Of a stretch of 33,551 nt of DNA, positions 2,949 to 11,795 are shown piece by piece. The position numbers and the translations under genes were made by a program. Below the pieces are notes generated by a model, which saw only the letters and a list, made by a program, of their open reading frames with translations, had not been told where the DNA came from and ran no database searches. The stretch's first letter is position 1, and each line of letters begins with the position of its first letter. Source of the DNA: a virus (taxonomy: Duplodnaviria; Caudoviricetes); the IMG/VR virus record IMGVR_UViG_3300020042_004008, positions 1 to 33,551 of that record. One strand, given 5' to 3'.

Positions 2949-3458
2949 ATGGAAAATTATAAACAATCTAATTATTTACCAATAGGGTATTTAATAAATG
3001 AATTTGGTGAAATTATTTCGCCTAAAGGTAAGGTATTGAAACAAGCTATTTCAAATAGTGGCTATAAGTTTTTAAATATAAAGAACAAAGGTTATTTTGT
3101 ACACAGGGCTTTAGCTTTTTGCTTTATAAATAATATTGATTCTAAACTAAATCAAATAAACCATAAAGATGGGAATAAATTAAATAATAGTTTAGATAAT
3201 TTAGAGTGGTGTACTAAAAGTCATAATATGAAACATATGTATGATATCGGTTTAAAGAAATATAAACCTTTACATTATAAAAATATGTTTGGTGTGGACC
3301 ACAATAGAAGTAAAAAAGTAAGGTGTATTGAAAGTGGTATTATTTATGAATCAATGAGTGAAGCTGGCAGAAAATTAAAAATAAGTTATTCATCTGTATC
3401 ATGGTCCATAAAAAATAAAAGACCTATTTTCGGGATGCACTTTGAAATAGCAGAATAA
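2949..3458 (+). CDS. HNH homing endonuclease (HNH_3 plus NUMOD1-like C-terminal DNA-binding domain)
   Basis: VHR...INHKDGNKLNNSLDNLEWCT..N motif and YESMSEAGRKL helix; ATG 2949 preferred over TTG 2931, which lies in the promoter. Confidence 0.9.
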   Translation: MENYKQSNYLPIGYLINEFGEIISPKGKVLKQAISNSGYKFLNIKNKGYFVHRALAFCFINNIDSKLNQINHKDGNKLNNSLDNLEWCTKSHNMKHMYDIGLKKYKPLHYKNMFGVDHNRSKKVRCIESGIIYESMSEAGRKLKISYSSVSWSIKNKRPIFGMHFEIAE

Positions 3459-3501: not shown

Positions 3502-3534
3502 AAGTCCTGAGCAAACGAGTTCAGGACTTTTTTT
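3502..3534 (+). terminator. Intrinsic terminator
   Basis: AAGTCCTGA...TCAGGACTT stem followed by a T-run. Confidence 0.8.
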
Positions 3535-3611
3535 ATTTAGAATGATTCTATATTAGCGAAAAAATTTGGTAGTTACAAAAAAAGTACTACTTTTGAATCG
3601 TAATTAAAATA
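3535..3611 (+). promoter_or_regulatory. Early promoter 1 with upstream palindromic operator
   Basis: Palindrome TAGAAT-G-ATTCTA 3538-3550; TTTG 3565-3568, 19-bp spacer, TACTTTTG 3588-3595; then CGTAATTAAAA. Confidence 0.75.
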
Positions 3612-3618
3612 TAAAGAT

Positions 3619-4278: not shown

Positions 4279-4469
4279 ACGCAAATAGACTAAGAAAGAA
4301 AAACAAGGTAAACGGGTTGAATCCGACCTTTAGAAACAAGATGAACTATATCGCAATGGTTGATCAACGATGTAATTTTAAGCATTGTGCAAGCGTTGTT
4401 AATTGGAAACCTTATACTTTGATTGCTTATAGTGGATGGTTGCCAAGAGTTAACAATGAGGTTGATTAG
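4275..4469 (+). CDS. Hypothetical protein
   Basis: 64 aa, ATGA overlap with the upstream gene. Confidence 0.55.
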   Translation: MNANRLRKKNKVNGLNPTFRNKMNYIAMVDQRCNFKHCASVVNWKPYTLIAYSGWLPRVNNEVD

Positions 4470-4473
4470 AATG

Positions 4474-4506
4474 TGTTATGTTTCCGTTTCAATGGAACAT
4501 AACGGA
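4474..4506 (+). repeat. 33-bp direct repeat copy 1 (empty hairpin unit)
   Basis: TGTTATGTTTCCGTTTCAATGGAACATAACGGA, identical to 4941-4973. Confidence 0.95.
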
Positions 4507-4542
4507 GCGTAAGTAGGCGAAGGTTTTACAAATTTTTGAGCG

Positions 4543-4923
4543 ATGGCATACATAAATAAAGAAACAAGAGAAAAAGTTTGGAATAAGTACGATAAACGAT
4601 GTGCTTATTGTGGTACTGAATTAGAGTATAAGCAGTTGCAAGTTGACCATATTGAAGCACATTGGCATAATTGCGAGGAAAATAATTCATACGGAGTTAC
4701 CAAGGGTAAACATGAGTTAGAAAACTTTAATCCAAGTTGTGCGAGATGTAACAGGTGGAAAGGAACTTTTACTATTGAAGGATTTAGAAACGAGATACAG
4801 CAACAGCTTATACGACTTAAAAGAGATAGTTCAAATTATAGAATGGCACTTGATTACAAAATGATTGAAGAAAGCAATAAGCCCATTAAGTTCTTCTTTG
4901 AGCGATGGGAAGAAAATTTATAA
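4543..4923 (+). CDS. HNH endonuclease (zinc-binding McrA-like fold), cassette cargo
   Basis: CAYC...QVDHI...H...N..PSCARCN..K motif. Confidence 0.88.
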   Translation: MAYINKETREKVWNKYDKRCAYCGTELEYKQLQVDHIEAHWHNCEENNSYGVTKGKHELENFNPSCARCNRWKGTFTIEGFRNEIQQQLIRLKRDSSNYRMALDYKMIEESNKPIKFFFERWEENL

Positions 4924-4940
4924 AACTTTTGCTTACTTGC

Positions 4941-4973
4941 TGTTATGTTTCCGTTTCAATGGAACATAACGGA
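4941..4973 (+). repeat. 33-bp direct repeat copy 2
   Basis: Identical to 4474-4506. Confidence 0.95.
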
Positions 4974-5015
4974 ACGCAAGTAGGCATCCGTTTTAATGGT
5001 GCTTACTTGCTGTTA
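4967..5015 (+). repeat. attC-like hairpin (empty)
   Basis: TAACGG..GCAAGTAGGCA(T)CC-GTTTTAAT-GGTGCTTACTTGC-TGTTA. Confidence 0.8.
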
Positions 5016-5060
5016 TAGTCTGGTAGCGACTTTAAAGAATAAATTTAATTAGAACGAAAA

Positions 5061-5483
5061 ATGGAAAAAGAAATAAAAAAAGCGTTGGAAGAAATAAATC
5101 TAAAATTAGATAAAATTCAAGTCCAAAATAAATTAATTAGTATTAGAACTAAAGATGTTTTTAATTTTTATGAAGCGTGTATATTTTTGGAATTATCAAA
5201 CTCACATTTATATAAAATGACAAGTTCAAAACAAATACCTTATTACAAACCAACAGGTAAGAAATTGTATTTTAAAAGAACGGAGCTAATAGAATGGTTG
5301 CTTAGAAATAAATCTGAGCCAACAAATAAGGAATCTTTACAAGTTGAACCAATCGGAAATTCTGAACAGTTTAAAAAAAGTAAAGTAAATTTAAAATTCA
5401 TTTCAAAAAAAGATACCAAAGTATTGAATTTACAAGACATACAACGTAAAAAAATTATTTCAAAAATATTAGATAGAAAGTGA
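5061..5483 (+). CDS. Excisionase-like / MerR-type HTH_17 DNA-binding protein, cassette cargo
   Basis: FNFYEACIFLELSNSHLYKMTSSKQIPYYKP.GKKLYFKRTELIEWL matches the HTH_17 pattern; alternative in-frame TTG at 5085. Confidence 0.8.
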   Translation: MEKEIKKALEEINLKLDKIQVQNKLISIRTKDVFNFYEACIFLELSNSHLYKMTSSKQIPYYKPTGKKLYFKRTELIEWLLRNKSEPTNKESLQVEPIGNSEQFKKSKVNLKFISKKDTKVLNLQDIQRKKIISKILDRK

Positions 5484-5672
5484 GTGGAATTTTGAAAACC
5501 TATAAAGAATTAATTATCAACACTTTAATTTTCAAAGTGGAATTTTGGAATTTTAATAATTCCACTCAACACTTTACACCTAAAGTATCAAGTGTAAAGT
5601 GTAGTGCGATGGCTTTTTATTTCTTTTTCATACGATAAACAGTATTGGAACGAGAAACTAAGCTATCGACTA

Positions 5673-5733
5673 TAACGGTTGCGGCTATACGTCAGGTTTT
5701 GTTTTTCACAAAACTTGCGTATAGGTGGTGTTA
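5673..5733 (+). repeat. attC-like hairpin (empty)
   Basis: TAACGG..CTATACG(T)CAGGTTTTGT-loop-ACAAAACTTGCGTATAG..TGTTA. Confidence 0.8.
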
Positions 5734-5801
5734 CCTGCTGGTGCGGTTATTTTAGGATAAACTTTAATACGAAGAACGAAAGAAAAGAATTAAAAAAAGC
5801 G

Positions 5802-6434
5802 ATGGAAAATTTAGAAGTAAAACAAATTGATTATAAAACTGCTATGAATGTTATTCTTGAAAAACATTACTTACATAGAAAATGCCCTTGTTCTATTGCT
5901 TTTGGCTTGTTTAAAGAAAATGAATTAGTCGGAGTTATCGTATTTGGCAAACCATCATCCTATACATTATGTGAAGGGATTGCAGGTAAGGATGAAAGTA
6001 AAAACGTAATAGAATTTAATAGATTATGGGTTTGCGATACGATGCCTAAAAACACAGAAAGTTGGTTTACTTCAAGAGCAATAAAGCAATGCACATTTGA
6101 AATTATTGTATCATTTGCAGATACGGAACAAGGACATATTGGCTATATTTACCAAGCAACTAATTGGCTTTATTGTGGTGAAAGTAAAAAGCAAAGATAT
6201 TTTAGGATTAAAGATAATTCAAATAACGAAGGCGGAACAGAATACAGGAGAAGGGAACGAATGCCAAAAGCAAAAATAATAGAGCTATATGGAGAAGAAT
6301 ATGTTGAAGAATATTACAGCAGTTTGAAACATAGATACATTTACTTTAACGCTGATAAACGAAGAAAAAATGAGTTACTTAAAAAACTAAAATATGCAAT
6401 ATTACCTTATCCTAAAAGTGCGGTGGCTTTTTAA
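5802..6434 (+). CDS. Mom-like (GNAT-fold) DNA modification protein, cassette cargo
   Basis: HYLH, EFNRLW, NTESWF, SFAD...GHIGYIYQATNW motifs; true start likely ATG 5802, since the tracked 5679 extension runs through the hairpin. Confidence 0.72.
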   Translation: MENLEVKQIDYKTAMNVILEKHYLHRKCPCSIAFGLFKENELVGVIVFGKPSSYTLCEGIAGKDESKNVIEFNRLWVCDTMPKNTESWFTSRAIKQCTFEIIVSFADTEQGHIGYIYQATNWLYCGESKKQRYFRIKDNSNNEGGTEYRRRERMPKAKIIELYGEEYVEEYYSSLKHRYIYFNADKRRKNELLKKLKYAILPYPKSAVAF

Positions 6435-6485
6435 TTCTTTTCTAACGAAAATGTTAAATCGAAGAACGGATGTAGCACTTGCAGG

Positions 6486-6533
6486 TAACGGCTGCGTATA
6501 GGCGGTCGTTTTAATGCCGCCTATACGTTGTCA
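6486..6533 (+). repeat. attC-like hairpin (empty)
   Basis: TAACGG..CGTATAGGCGG(T)C-GTTTTAAT-GCCGCCTATACG-TTGTCA. Confidence 0.8.
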
Positions 6534-6607
6534 TAAGCTGGCTGCGGTTAATTAACAACTAAACTCAAATCGAAGCACTAAACAAAAGAATTAAAAAAAA
6601 AGAAGGG

Positions 6608-7348
6608 ATGGAAATAAATAAAATATATAACGAGAATTGCCTTGATACGATGGCTAAAATGCCTGATAAGTTTGTGGACTTAGTAGTTACTTCACCACCT
6701 TACAATATGCGAACAAGGATAAGGAACGGACAATACACCACAAGAGAGAAAAGCGAACATTTTAGCAAGAAGTATAAGCATTTTGACGATGCCTTACCGA
6801 TAAATGATTTTTACGAATTTCATAGCAGCGTATTGACTGAACTATTGAGAGTATCGAAAATTGTTTGTTATAACTTTCAAATAGTAACAGGAAGCAAGGA
6901 AGCGTTTTTTAAAATCATTGGCGACTTTAACAAGGATATTAAGGATATTATCATTTGGGATAAAGGAAGCGGACAGCCTGCAATGCACGGAATGGTTTTA
7001 AATAGCTGCTATGAAATGGTATTGATATTAGAAGATGATAAAAGAGCAGGCAGAGCAATACAAAACGCTAAATTCAAAAGAGGTGAAATGAATAATATTT
7101 TGAGAATTGGCAGAGGCAAGAAAGTATCTGATGTTCACGGTGCAATTTTCCCTGAACAACTACCATTTGATTTGATAAACGCTTTTTCAGAAAAAGAAGC
7201 ATTGATTTACGACCCTTTTATGGGAAGCGGAACGACTGGATTAGTAGCAAGTAAATTAGGTAGAAAATATATTGGAAGTGAAATAACAGAAGAATATTGT
7301 AAAATAGCTGAAACTCGTATTAAAGAGTGCGGTGGGCTTTTTTTTTAA
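6608..7348 (+). CDS. DNA amino-methyltransferase (N4-C/N6-A, beta class), cassette cargo
   Basis: Catalytic TSPPY precedes the SAM-binding DPFMGSGTT; HGAIFP. Confidence 0.92.
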   Translation: MEINKIYNENCLDTMAKMPDKFVDLVVTSPPYNMRTRIRNGQYTTREKSEHFSKKYKHFDDALPINDFYEFHSSVLTELLRVSKIVCYNFQIVTGSKEAFFKIIGDFNKDIKDIIIWDKGSGQPAMHGMVLNSCYEMVLILEDDKRAGRAIQNAKFKRGEMNNILRIGRGKKVSDVHGAIFPEQLPFDLINAFSEKEALIYDPFMGSGTTGLVASKLGRKYIGSEITEEYCKIAETRIKECGGLFF

Positions 7349-7465
7349 TTCTTTTGAAACGGAATTGTCAAACGAAGCAGGAACGTAGCAGCTTGCTTAT
7401 AACTACTTTATTGACGTAAGTAATGTGTAAAGACACCAACAAACACTACTAAAAATATTTACACA

Positions 7466-7714
7466 ATGCAATTTAAACACGGTTTTATTTACATGGGAGT
7501 TAGGTACGGTTGGAATAAAAAACAACTTTACAGACTCCCATTTAACCGTAACCTCAGAAACTACGATTTAAAACTAATCAAACCTATTGTTATCGGATTA
7601 ACAACGTGCTACAATTTGCAACGTAATAAAGTTACGATAAACAGAATCGAAAAACTCACCACTAAAGTAGATTGGAACATTGAAGTTTTGGATGTGGCAG
7701 ATTGCCCCTTCTAA
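7466..7714 (+). CDS. Small basic/aromatic protein directly after the cassette array
   Basis: 82 aa, YGW...LYRLP motif, acidic DCPF tail. Confidence 0.7.
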   Translation: MQFKHGFIYMGVRYGWNKKQLYRLPFNRNLRNYDLKLIKPIVIGLTTCYNLQRNKVTINRIEKLTTKVDWNIEVLDVADCPF

Positions 7715-7788
7715 TTTAGAATCATTCTAAACTACAAAAACACTTGCATAATTAAAACCTTCATACTACTTTTACAACGTAATTAAAA
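7714..7788 (+). promoter_or_regulatory. Early promoter 2 with palindromic operator
   Basis: Perfect TTTAGAAT-C-ATTCTAAA 7715-7731; TTG at 7744; TACTACTTTT and CGTAATTAAAA shared with promoter 1. Confidence 0.75.
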
Positions 7789-7798
7789 TTTAGAAATT

Positions 7799-8956: not shown

Positions 8957-9138
8957 GAGCGCACGAATGGTCAGTAAAATTACCAGTATCTGAGTTTGTC
9001 TTATTCCTTGACTATTGGAAGTTTGAGAATTGGAACACAGAATATAATTCCTTTGAGGAGTTTTTACACGATAGCATAATATTCGAGGAAACAAAAGAGG
9101 GGTTTGAGTATTGGAACGAAATAAGTAAGAGATTATGA
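8953..9138 (+). CDS. Hypothetical protein
   Basis: 61 aa acidic/aromatic ORF with coupled overlaps. Confidence 0.65.
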   Translation: MRAHEWSVKLPVSEFVLFLDYWKFENWNTEYNSFEEFLHDSIIFEETKEGFEYWNEISKRL

Positions 9139-9947
9139 AAACTTTAAATAGTATTAGTGGAGGTAAAACATCAGCTTATTTAGCTTACCATTACCCAGCA
9201 GACTATAATTTATTTGCTTTAGTGAGAATAGAAGATAAAAATTGCTCACCAAAAGATAAAGGATTAATCAAATTAGTTTCTGATAAAATAGGAACAGAAT
9301 TTATTGCTACGGTTGAAAGTGATTTAACTTTAAAAGTTGTATTAGATTTAGAGCAGTTAATAGGTCGTGAAATAAAATGGTTGATAGGTGATACTTTTGA
9401 AGAGGTATTAAGTAAAAGAAAGAATTTCTTACCAAACCAAAGAACAAGATTTTGTACTACTGACATGAAAATTAAACCTATTGCTGAATATTGTAAGAAT
9501 GAAATAAAAGAAATAGTTTTAACAAGGTTAGGAATAAGATATGACGAAGAAAATAGAGTTAATTATGAGAATGTTGACTTTAAATTTCATAATGGATTTT
9601 CTAAAAATGGTAGAAATAAATGGAAGGTTGAAAAGTATAGAGAATTAGAATACCCACTTGTGAAAGATAAAGTAGAACACTACCAAATTTATAAATGGTC
9701 AAAAACAACTGGATTGATTTTTCCAAACGATTCAAATTGTGTTGGGTGTTTTCATAAACAAATTCCACAACTAAGAAAAAACTTTGAAGATGAGCCTTTA
9801 AAAATGCAATGGTTCGCAAACCAAGAAACAAAAAAAAGCAGATGGAAAGATAATGTAAGTTATGAGAATATAAAAAAATTAGGGTTACAAACAGACTTCT
9901 TTTTTGGCGGTGGTTCGAGTTGTAACTCTGGAGGATGTCACGATTAA
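9135..9947 (+). CDS. PAPS reductase-like (PP-loop) protein, candidate DNA modification enzyme
   Basis: SGGKTS PP-loop, RFCT..MKIKP, GIR.DE..R, SNCVGC cysteine cluster. Confidence 0.8.
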   Translation: MKTLNSISGGKTSAYLAYHYPADYNLFALVRIEDKNCSPKDKGLIKLVSDKIGTEFIATVESDLTLKVVLDLEQLIGREIKWLIGDTFEEVLSKRKNFLPNQRTRFCTTDMKIKPIAEYCKNEIKEIVLTRLGIRYDEENRVNYENVDFKFHNGFSKNGRNKWKVEKYRELEYPLVKDKVEHYQIYKWSKTTGLIFPNDSNCVGCFHKQIPQLRKNFEDEPLKMQWFANQETKKSRWKDNVSYENIKKLGLQTDFFFGGGSSCNSGGCHD

Positions 9948-11102: not shown

Positions 11103-11795
11103 ATGGAAGGATTTATTTCTATACATAGAAGAATCAAAGAACATTGGGTTGTAGATAATCCTCAGTATTTTAAAGCATGGATTTTTATGCTTTTAGTTAC
11201 TAATTTTAAAGATGGTAGATTATTGCTTGGGGGTAAAGTGTATTTGATTAAAAGAGGGCAATCTAGTTTATCTATGAGATCGTGGGCGCATGAGTTTAAT
11301 ATGTCAGTAAAAGCGGTGGATACGTTCTTTAATTTATTGGTAAATGAAAACATGATAAAACGTGAAGTAATTGGTAAAGGGAAACATAGCACAACACTTA
11401 TAACTATTGAGAATTATGATAGTTATCAGCACTTTTCAGAATCAATAGAGAAACATAAGGGAATCGTAAGAGAAACGCAAGGGAAACACAAAGGAAACGC
11501 TAGGGGGGTACAATATAATAATGATAATAAAGTTAATAATGATAATAAAGTTAATAATGATAATAAAGAAAATAATATAAATATACCTTCATTTGAAATT
11601 TTTTTAGAATATGCCTTAACAAAAAAAGAAAGAGTTAGTAAAACAGATTTAAAATACAAATACGAATCATGGGTTGAAAATGATTGGAAGGATGGCAAAG
11701 ATAATAAGATTAAAAATTGGAAATCTAAATTATTACAAACATTGCCATTTATCAAAGAAGAAGTTATATTTACAAGCCCTAGAATATCAGTATGA
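11103..11795 (+). CDS. Replication initiator / replisome organizer (lambda O / DnaD-like)
   Basis: GFISIHRRI..HW N-terminus, RGQ, ITIENYD..Q, low-complexity linker, KIKNWKS C-domain; overlaps the helicase gene. Confidence 0.8.
   Translation: MEGFISIHRRIKEHWVVDNPQYFKAWIFMLLVTNFKDGRLLLGGKVYLIKRGQSSLSMRSWAHEFNMSVKAVDTFFNLLVNENMIKREVIGKGKHSTTLITIENYDSYQHFSESIEKHKGIVRETQGKHKGNARGVQYNNDNKVNNDNKVNNDNKENNINIPSFEIFLEYALTKKERVSKTDLKYKYESWVENDWKDGKDNKIKNWKSKLLQTLPFIKEEVIFTSPRISV
11448..11568 (+). repeat. Putative replication origin: five 11-bp iterons plus about three 18-bp AT-rich repeats
   Basis: GAGAAACATAA GGGAATCGTAA GAGAAACGCAA GGGAAACACAA AGGAAACGCTA (11448-11502); AATAATGATAATAAAGTT tandem (11517-11568). 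Confidence 0.75.

Follow-up and report, generated by a model that had tools for sequence, protein, structure and literature searches.

Paired G-rich motifs and adjoining inverted repeats bracket the cargo genes of integron-like cassettes in a phage with a likely Bacteroidota host

In integrons, the recombination site attC lies downstream of its gene, the non-coding (bottom) strand of the site is the one that folds, and canonical attC spacers are 5 to 6 nt long. Here, we analyzed an integron-like cassette array in a virus of the Caudoviricetes (Duplodnaviria; IMG/VR record IMGVR_UViG_3300020042_004008). The whole stretch of 33,551 nt is referred to as the window. This 33.4-kb phage record is complete, with 121-nt terminal repeats, and its genes include those for a terminase, a primase-helicase, ERF, and NinG. 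Since the arms of its array match cultured Flavobacterium phages, its host likely belongs to the Bacteroidota. We found that a pair of short G-rich motifs, together with adjoining inverted repeats, brackets the cargo of these cassettes. This layout is real and widespread, partly as an initial annotation of the window had proposed.

The features of attC sites, including the better folding of the G-rich strand, have been set out by Nivina et al. (PMC5027507), and cassette formation was called largely unknown by Loot et al. (PMC5371416). Phage CALINs (clusters of attC sites lacking integron integrases) were described by Qi et al. 2023 (PMC9892861) as arrays that lack an integrase and occur in virulent phages, among them Polaribacter phage P12002L, one site of which was recombined by IntI1. 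Like the array studied here, they lack an integrase and carry DNA methyltransferases; in contrast, the main-text sections available from that paper contain no Flavobacterium, "Bacteroid", start codon, arms, or boundary motif. In the group IIC-attC intron model (Leon and Roy 2009, as presented in PMC7923331 and PMC3053210), a gene likewise becomes attached, with little of its flanking DNA, to a recombination hairpin that already exists. That model requires an intron that splices and is reverse transcribed, and only the 3' end of the gene is joined, whereas both ends are defined here and no reverse transcriptase was matched among the 31 window proteins scanned. A description of the motif pair or arms was not found in the literature searched, which covered little subscription literature; the parts seen of PMC8618304 and 10.1101/2023.11.21.568050 added nothing on motif or arms.

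Between positions 4475 and 7403 of the window, TAAC..GTTA hairpins alternate with GTTA..TAAC bodies in an array of four cassettes. As in integrons, single-gene units lie between imperfect hairpins with an AAC..GTT core (fold z values of three gene-less hairpins, -4.4 to -6.0), one strand, which is G-rich, folds better, and a tyrosine recombinase stands beside some arrays. Cassettes are also reassorted between arrays at the core site. A hairpin was kept with its downstream body in 28 of 77 pairs, with its upstream body in 0 of 54, and in 4 of 600 random ones, the pairs not being independent; the TAAC..GTTA hairpin thus moves with its downstream gene. This places the crossover at the 5' TAAC, which agrees with integrons, where the AAC lies on the 5' arm of the strand that folds, and the resulting units of the window are 4503 to 4969, 4970 to 5675, 5676 to 6488, and 6489 to 7402. 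The same body was joined to another hairpin in the remaining 49 of 77 pairs, indicating that modules are exchanged. A strict polarity test, in which both neighbors were different, comprised 4 pairs only and gave no signal.

The system appears to function like an integron but lacks two defining features, an IntI-family integrase and a downstream hairpin that folds from the non-coding strand. Here, the hairpin precedes its gene, and the coding strand had the lower folding energy in 217 of 262 hairpins. Neither a tyrosine recombinase nor an IntI-family integrase was found in the window. A tyrosine recombinase gene lies 3' of the array on the same strand in two other records (L314 and L284) and was present in 3 of 10 further records. 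The L314 and L284 proteins reached 170 and 117 bits on TIGR02249, in two stretches, against a cut-off of 265; their best model was XerA, with 192 and 161 bits, which is below its cut-off of 220, too. Terminal repeats measure some 15 bp instead of 7, and the unpaired spacer is mostly 5 nt against 1 to 2 nt, the best detected spacers being mostly 5/1 (111) and 5/2 (63) of 308. A classical 6/5 spacer geometry, which derived from a few examples, was not borne out by the consensus. Unlike in integrons, a subset of the cassettes has 70-nt arms, inner repeats, and the motif pair, and genes can sit in the hairpin loop. Judged by its sequence, this is not a classical IntI integron.

The initial annotation placed eight GCGRTGG-type motifs in direct orientation at the borders of the four cargo genes, and we confirmed all of them. 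The HNH endonuclease gene lies between two identical 12-nt copies, TTTGAGCGATGG, at 4535 to 4546 (including the ATG at 4543) and 4897 to 4908, both on the + strand. The other six copies are GCGTTGG at 5082 and GCGATGG at 5606 for the HTH gene, GCGATGG at 5799 and GCGGTGG at 6420 for the Mom gene, and GGGATGG at 6605 and GCGGTGG at 7329 for the methyltransferase gene. Eight matches to G[CG]G[AGT]TGG fall within 4300 to 7450, compared with a mean of 0.45 and a maximum of 3 in 300 dinucleotide shuffles; the whole + strand of the window has 14 against 3.9 expected, with six copies outside the array. What the initial annotation had missed is that each motif stands at the inner end of an AT-rich inverted repeat (4511-4536/4913-4938, 5064-5079/5614-5629, 5781-5796/6428-6443, and 6583-6602/7337-7356). 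The body ends are complementary as well, with a median of 15 bp over the 131 bodies, out of 179 parsed, in which 8 or more of 9 end bases were complementary, and whole-body folds pair both arms with 32 to 42 pairs. Given these inner inverted repeats and complementary ends, the cargo would form the loop of a long single-strand hairpin.

A reading of these stems as terminators was rejected. No + strand terminator was found, and promoter-like sites were at chance level. Arms that are T-rich on the left and A-rich on the right also occur, leaving no U-run after the stem. We also observed a second direct-repeat layer (TCAAATCGAAGCA / TCAAACGAAGCA) in the arms of the methyltransferase cassette, at 6530 to 6602 and 7357 to 7403, which resembles the long loops of 115- to 127-nt hairpins in L398 to L400. 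Hairpins fall into size classes of about 60, 70 to 80, 88, and 120 to 127 nt, suggesting loop duplication.

Counting the motif in other arrays, a check proposed beforehand, revealed that it marks cargo junctions in many of them. Among 79 cargo clusters of at least 270 nt, 25 had an inner repeat scoring at least 15. With one mismatch to the initially annotated motif allowed, it adjoined this repeat on the left in 18, on the right in 17, and on both sides in 14 of the 25; the corresponding numbers for the 54 clusters without such a repeat were 4, 3, and 1. The background was 4.8% of 2,710 windows, and the reverse strand gave 0 of 50. It should be noted that loci were fetched by arm patterns or cargo homologs, which inflates the proportion of cassettes with long arms. 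In longer stretches (40, from 12 records, with one array of 36 bodies), both motifs were present in 13 of 20 cassettes with an inner repeat versus 4 of 48. The learned consensus, G-W-G-S-G-W-K-G-G, was alike on the left and right, and its three exact matches in the window all lie at junctions. Thirty-seven cassettes, in 15 cargo families and with 20 inner-repeat types, had both motifs and an inner repeat scoring at least 13; the weight matrix was trained on these data, making motif presence circular there but not the later tests. When the window was left out together with all loci that had been fetched by motif or cargo, the set still numbered 32 cassettes in 14 families. In five cassettes of one large array (L398:8147, L399:3425, L399:4181, L399:13020, and L400:2761), a promoter-like region is followed by one to three variable genes and the same small terminal gene; they have four different inner repeats, each still complementary.

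The left and right motifs of a cassette, referred to as words, could have arisen by target duplication if a gene inserted into a single apex motif by the illegitimate route seen in ordinary phage loci. The 12/12 identity of the HNH repeat and the clean hairpin with one motif at its tip that results from in silico removal of the cargo are in line with such an event. However, left and right words were no more alike within cassettes than after shuffling (8.1 versus 8.3 of 15 positions; core, 5.7 versus 5.9 of 9), and 77% of shuffles reached the within-cassette identity. Inner-repeat complementarity, by comparison, was 17.7 within cassettes versus 7.2 between families, which suggests that the words are older than the cargo. 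Left and right words also hold side-specific forms across unrelated cargoes, and gene-less hairpins mostly contain two of them. The words are not copies made at insertion, and we consider target duplication very improbable as the origin of the pair. Half of the HNH repeat (TTTGAG, in the right motif the codons for the conserved F-E) belongs to the gene itself: 62 of 70 homologs share the F-x-F-E end (F[YFW][FY]E), and 14 of them continue with RW. The proposed non-homologous tail of the HNH protein is therefore supported for its more distant relatives only.

The illegitimate route itself was apparent outside cassettes, a point in favor of duplication. After 41 of 80 Mom loci and 14 of 30 methyltransferase loci among those usable were set aside as redundant or cassette-borne, flanking direct repeats of local sequence that scored at least 13 were detected for 6 of the 39 non-redundant relatives of Mom and for 2 of the 16 of the methyltransferase, compared with 0.5 to 0.8% in the null. 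For Mom relatives of at least 58% identity, the proportion was 5 of 9. Flanking direct repeats of 13 to 52 nt were observed at L003, L015, L018, L026, L027, and L050 (Mom) and at L324, L325, L338, and L341 (methyltransferase). They duplicate the end of the upstream gene or the leader and ATG of the next one, and in this way provide the start and last codons of the new gene.

According to the initial annotation, open reading frames (ORFs) are captured precisely at the start codon, which the left motif supplies. This proved true in part only. An ATG inside (13) or just before (4) the motif was found in 17 of the 37 cassettes but not in the other 20, which have A-rich leaders of 20 to 160 nt, promoter-like regions, or up to four ORFs. 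Using a crude label for arm type, 14 of the 19 left arms classed as A-rich had an ATG at the motif, compared with 3 of the 18 classed as T-rich. The right junction was more uniform. The last ORF ran through the right motif in 29 of 37 cassettes and stopped 5 to 33 nt before it in 7, the window HTH cassette alone doing neither, and a TAA no more than 9 nt before the right motif was present in 23 of 37, against a background of 21%. In the window, the three annotated read-through ends (ERWEENL, SAVAF, and ECGGLFF, each followed by the stop codon) were verified.

In Flavobacterium, an A at position -3 is a positive determinant of initiation, and leaders are A-rich (PMC6847099). The suggestion that the A-rich left arm acts as a Bacteroidota-style initiation region was not clearly supported: the motif sets a G at -3 in 4 of 4 window starts where 23 of 33 core genes carry A. 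Within the 15-nt leader, 9 to 11 A's were counted at three motif starts and 5 at the HNH gene, whose left arm is T-rich rather than A-rich; the core mean was 7.7. The arms thus often give start and stop, yet they do not appear to be an optimized initiation site. For the HTH gene, the in-frame TTG at 5085 is present, and homologs begin with M-E/D-E-I at its position; an additional in-frame ATG at 5061 lies in the arm and has an A at -3.

Junctions of this kind would be expected if a XerA-like recombinase or another partner, possibly working from mRNA, recognized both motifs in the hairpin loop and joined ORFs end to end. In 36 of 37 cassettes, the last ORF ends at the right junction, 15 cargo families are represented, the motif lies at a near-constant 67 to 80 nt from the cassette ends, the Mom and methyltransferase junctions fall within 1 to 2 nt of it, and the motif pair is already present in gene-less loops. 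Such directed capture is nevertheless difficult to reconcile with the 20 of 37 cassettes lacking an ATG at the motif, with cargoes of promoter-like regions and up to four ORFs, or with the 120 extra nt in the HTH cargo of the window. In addition, the motif is degenerate and absent from most cassettes (no inner repeat in 54 of 79 clusters), no candidate enzyme besides the recombinase was seen, and Mom terminates at this same residue when it lies outside cassettes. We therefore regard directed capture as unlikely.

Alignment to relatives outside cassettes agreed in part with the idea that homology begins at the start codon and ends just before the right motif. For Mom (3 of 3 tested) and the two closest methyltransferases, the match broke off 1 to 2 nt short of the right motif. 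The Mom DNA alignment to L002, L003, and L004 (80 to 89% protein identity) ends at 6416 to 6417, and the tails after YPK differ; the ATG is the same for Mom as well as for the methyltransferase. This trimming is not specific to cassettes, for outside them, too, the same Mom gene is cut at this residue and has target repeats on its flanks. The methyltransferases of L318 and L319 (96 to 97% identity) start at the same ATG and have the C-terminus RINENL. DNA identity of the window gene to L318/L319 was 82 to 100% up to nt 675 and 68% over the next 45 nt, and these last 45 nt share 17 to 23 gene bases with cassettes of only 32 to 37% protein identity. This switch in 3' identity suggests that the interior of the gene was likely swapped into an already filled cassette, which cuts against simple capture; the methyltransferase junctions appear to be inherited from older cassettes. 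Several non-cassette copies retain arm-like tails (GLF..), so genes also leave cassettes. This departure and the direct repeats that flank such genes outside cassettes likewise argue against simple capture. Copying of the inner repeat from the donor's own flank was considered as well, and L318, L319, and L320 do not support it.

Gene-less hairpins with the motif pair do exist. The pair was found in 14 of 389 gene-less TAAC..GTTA hairpins, with a second copy, often weaker, 11 to 17 nt on, so that 2 to 8 nt separate the words; three hairpins held a single motif, and the reverse strand gave 1. All 14 are 64 to 82 nt long, a size class of 37 hairpins, and in the four that were folded the pair was mostly unpaired at the tip. 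The gene-less hairpin of L183 has the GCGAAGG..CTTTTGCTTA stem of the window HNH hairpin, and the hairpin of L181 has an A-run on the left and a T-run on the right. A tandem-motif loop was found in 0 of 301 genomes of a host-related order, so this loop type looks phage-centered in the material searched. The ready-made scaffold of the initial annotation was not recovered in an empty form: for one arm subtype and one size range, no gene-less long-arm GTTA..TAAC body was found, since all 3 viral matches and all 28 from metagenomes were due to chance, and the exact left-arm pattern had 0 viral matches. Two gene-less GTTA..TAAC bodies without the motif were observed, L295:514 (114 nt), with a tandem 26-nt repeat in its loop, and L118:2564 (84 nt).

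Words and inner repeats might instead be folding or binding elements under selection on the single-stranded cassette, with cargo entering imprecisely and being deleted up to the words, gene-less pairs representing the fully trimmed state. Inner repeats do differ between related cassettes while complementarity is kept, untrimmed cargoes exist, and the better folding of the coding strand parallels that of G-rich strands in attC (PMC5027507). Deletion between similar words should leave one, yet the 3 singles are rarer than the 14 pairs, and trimming should rarely take a gene's own stop, yet 29 of 37 cassettes read through. Moreover, most cassettes function without words, and the inner repeat has decayed without compensation in some relatives (L316 and L103). 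This explanation consequently appears doubtful.

The reading that we prefer, with a probability of roughly 50%, is that a pre-existing two-word hairpin acceptor is rarely filled via 3 to 6 shared bases, that the outcomes are filtered by selection, and that interiors and arms are then exchanged. Once excised, the cassette would be a dumbbell formed by the single coding strand, and a gene could sit in either of its two loops; the HNH gene would occupy one loop and the other three cargoes the other. Entry of a new gene would be rare, with (G)ATGG in the left word pairing with start codons and (T)AAA(G) on the right side with AT-rich last codons or the stop. Only junctions that leave a whole, translatable ORF would survive, and for this reason the arms would often supply start and stop. 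Later, cassettes would exchange arms and the interiors of their cargoes, plausibly by ERF and a XerA-like recombinase acting in trans. In line with such exchange, the same HNH junctions were found in a different stem (L348), and one cargo recurred with both of its outer arms replaced. Erf and Rad52-like annealing proteins recombine short diverged sequences, including within genes (De Paepe et al. 2014, PMC3945230). This suits the mosaic methyltransferase, and the window encodes an ERF-family single-strand annealing protein (PF04404; 7799 to 8302, + strand), located outside the array, as a candidate agent of short-homology cargo exchange. In contrast to the 3 to 6 nt considered here, the homologies in that study were far longer, and the fixed motif is not explained by such proteins.

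Several observations weigh against the two-word acceptor. The shared junction bases amount to only 3 to 6 nt, and no trio of donor, acceptor, and product was caught among the loci compared. An empty long-arm body was not found in a search of the outer-arm pattern that covered one arm subtype and a gap of 95 to 125, and the gene-less motif pairs, which without exception lie in short TAAC..GTTA hairpins, could have arisen by deletion. The exactness of the right junctions is more than random joining and selection would easily give. Furthermore, 17 of the 37 cassettes carry one methyltransferase family, so independent captures number fewer than 37.

A bolder version is that the gene-less hairpin with its two G-rich tip words is a dedicated cassette-making site of Bacteroidota phages that takes up complete genes or small operons from end to end and so converts ordinary phage genes into mobile cassettes of an inverted, non-IntI integron. 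We consider this unlikely; if true, an acceptor for de novo cassette creation would be defined for the first time. Even if the process is less directed, the phage recycles hairpin arms to provide start, stop, and mobility for DNA-modification genes. With a defined candidate for the acceptor, versions of it filled by unrelated cargo, near-identical genes that sit outside cassettes, and arms that also occur in cultured Flavobacterium phages, this cassette family makes the question of cassette origin testable at the bench.

The array, all on the + strand, begins with a gene-less 29-nt GTTA..TAAC mini body (4475 to 4503), the tail of a lost upstream cassette, which is identical to the mini body closing the HNH cassette at 4942 to 4970 (predicted unit, 4503 to 4969). 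Between them, the HNH ORF (PF01844; 4543 to 4923), whose frame passes through the right motif, lies in the loop of a TAAC..GTTA hairpin (4500 to 4945), whereas the other three cargoes lie in GTTA..TAAC bodies. ORFs that start in a TAAC..GTTA hairpin loop and continue through GTTA into the body were noticed at L001:2920-3000, near position 1537 of L109, and in L122.

The HTH cassette consists of a recombination-site-like TAAC..GTTA hairpin (4967 to 5015; fold z, -4.5) and a body (5012 to 5676) with a terminal inverted repeat and motifs at 5080 to 5088 and 5604 to 5612. Its HTH_17 (excisionase-like) ORF spans 5061 to 5483, with homology from the TTG at 5085, and its 55-residue tail had no match in the homologs fetched. 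The stop at 5483 is 120 nt before the right motif (5604), and the gap (5484 to 5603) is a palindrome-rich non-coding cargo to which nothing convincing was matched in 25 HTH loci. A search of plasmids with the HTH cargo DNA gave no match. This cassette may be decaying or a chimera.

The Mom cassette comprises a TAAC..GTTA hairpin (5673 to 5733; fold z, -6.0) and a body (5730 to 6489) with a 15-bp terminal inverted repeat, motifs at 5797 to 5805 and 6418 to 6426, and a Mom-family DNA modification ORF (PF25680; 5802 to 6434). The hairpin of the methyltransferase cassette is of the form TAAC..GTCA (6486 to 6533; fold z, -4.4), and the same hairpin precedes another methyltransferase cassette in L165. 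The body (6530 to 7403) has motifs at 6603 to 6611 and 7327 to 7335 and contains the N4/N6 DNA methyltransferase ORF (PF01555; 6608 to 7348). Its stop is set by the length of a T-run; 99% identical copies continue to ..NEAGT before stopping. The array ends with TAAC followed by TACT.. (7400 to 7420), resembling the array end found ahead of the recombinase gene in L314 and L383, and is likely a docking site, as judged from this resemblance. No part of the window matched Rfam at gathering scores.

Further observations concern the surroundings of the array. Alike intergenic modules at 3528 to 3618 and 7711 to 7798 flank the array region, with a 29-nt inverted match and TAnnTTTG-like words, which we take to have a promoter role; leaders at 2926, 3463, and 10974 are similar. 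A free-standing HNH_3/I-TevI-like homing endonuclease is encoded at 2949 to 3458, 3' of the endolysin gene. Outside the array, a 270-amino-acid ORF without a Pfam match (9135 to 9947) ends near the GCGGTGG at 9907, and its start resembles PAPS-reductase-domain cassette cargoes of other arrays (L400:4121). Finally, a 9-nt tandem repeat at 11516 to 11583 encodes NNDNKV within a replication-initiator-like ORF (11103 to 11795).

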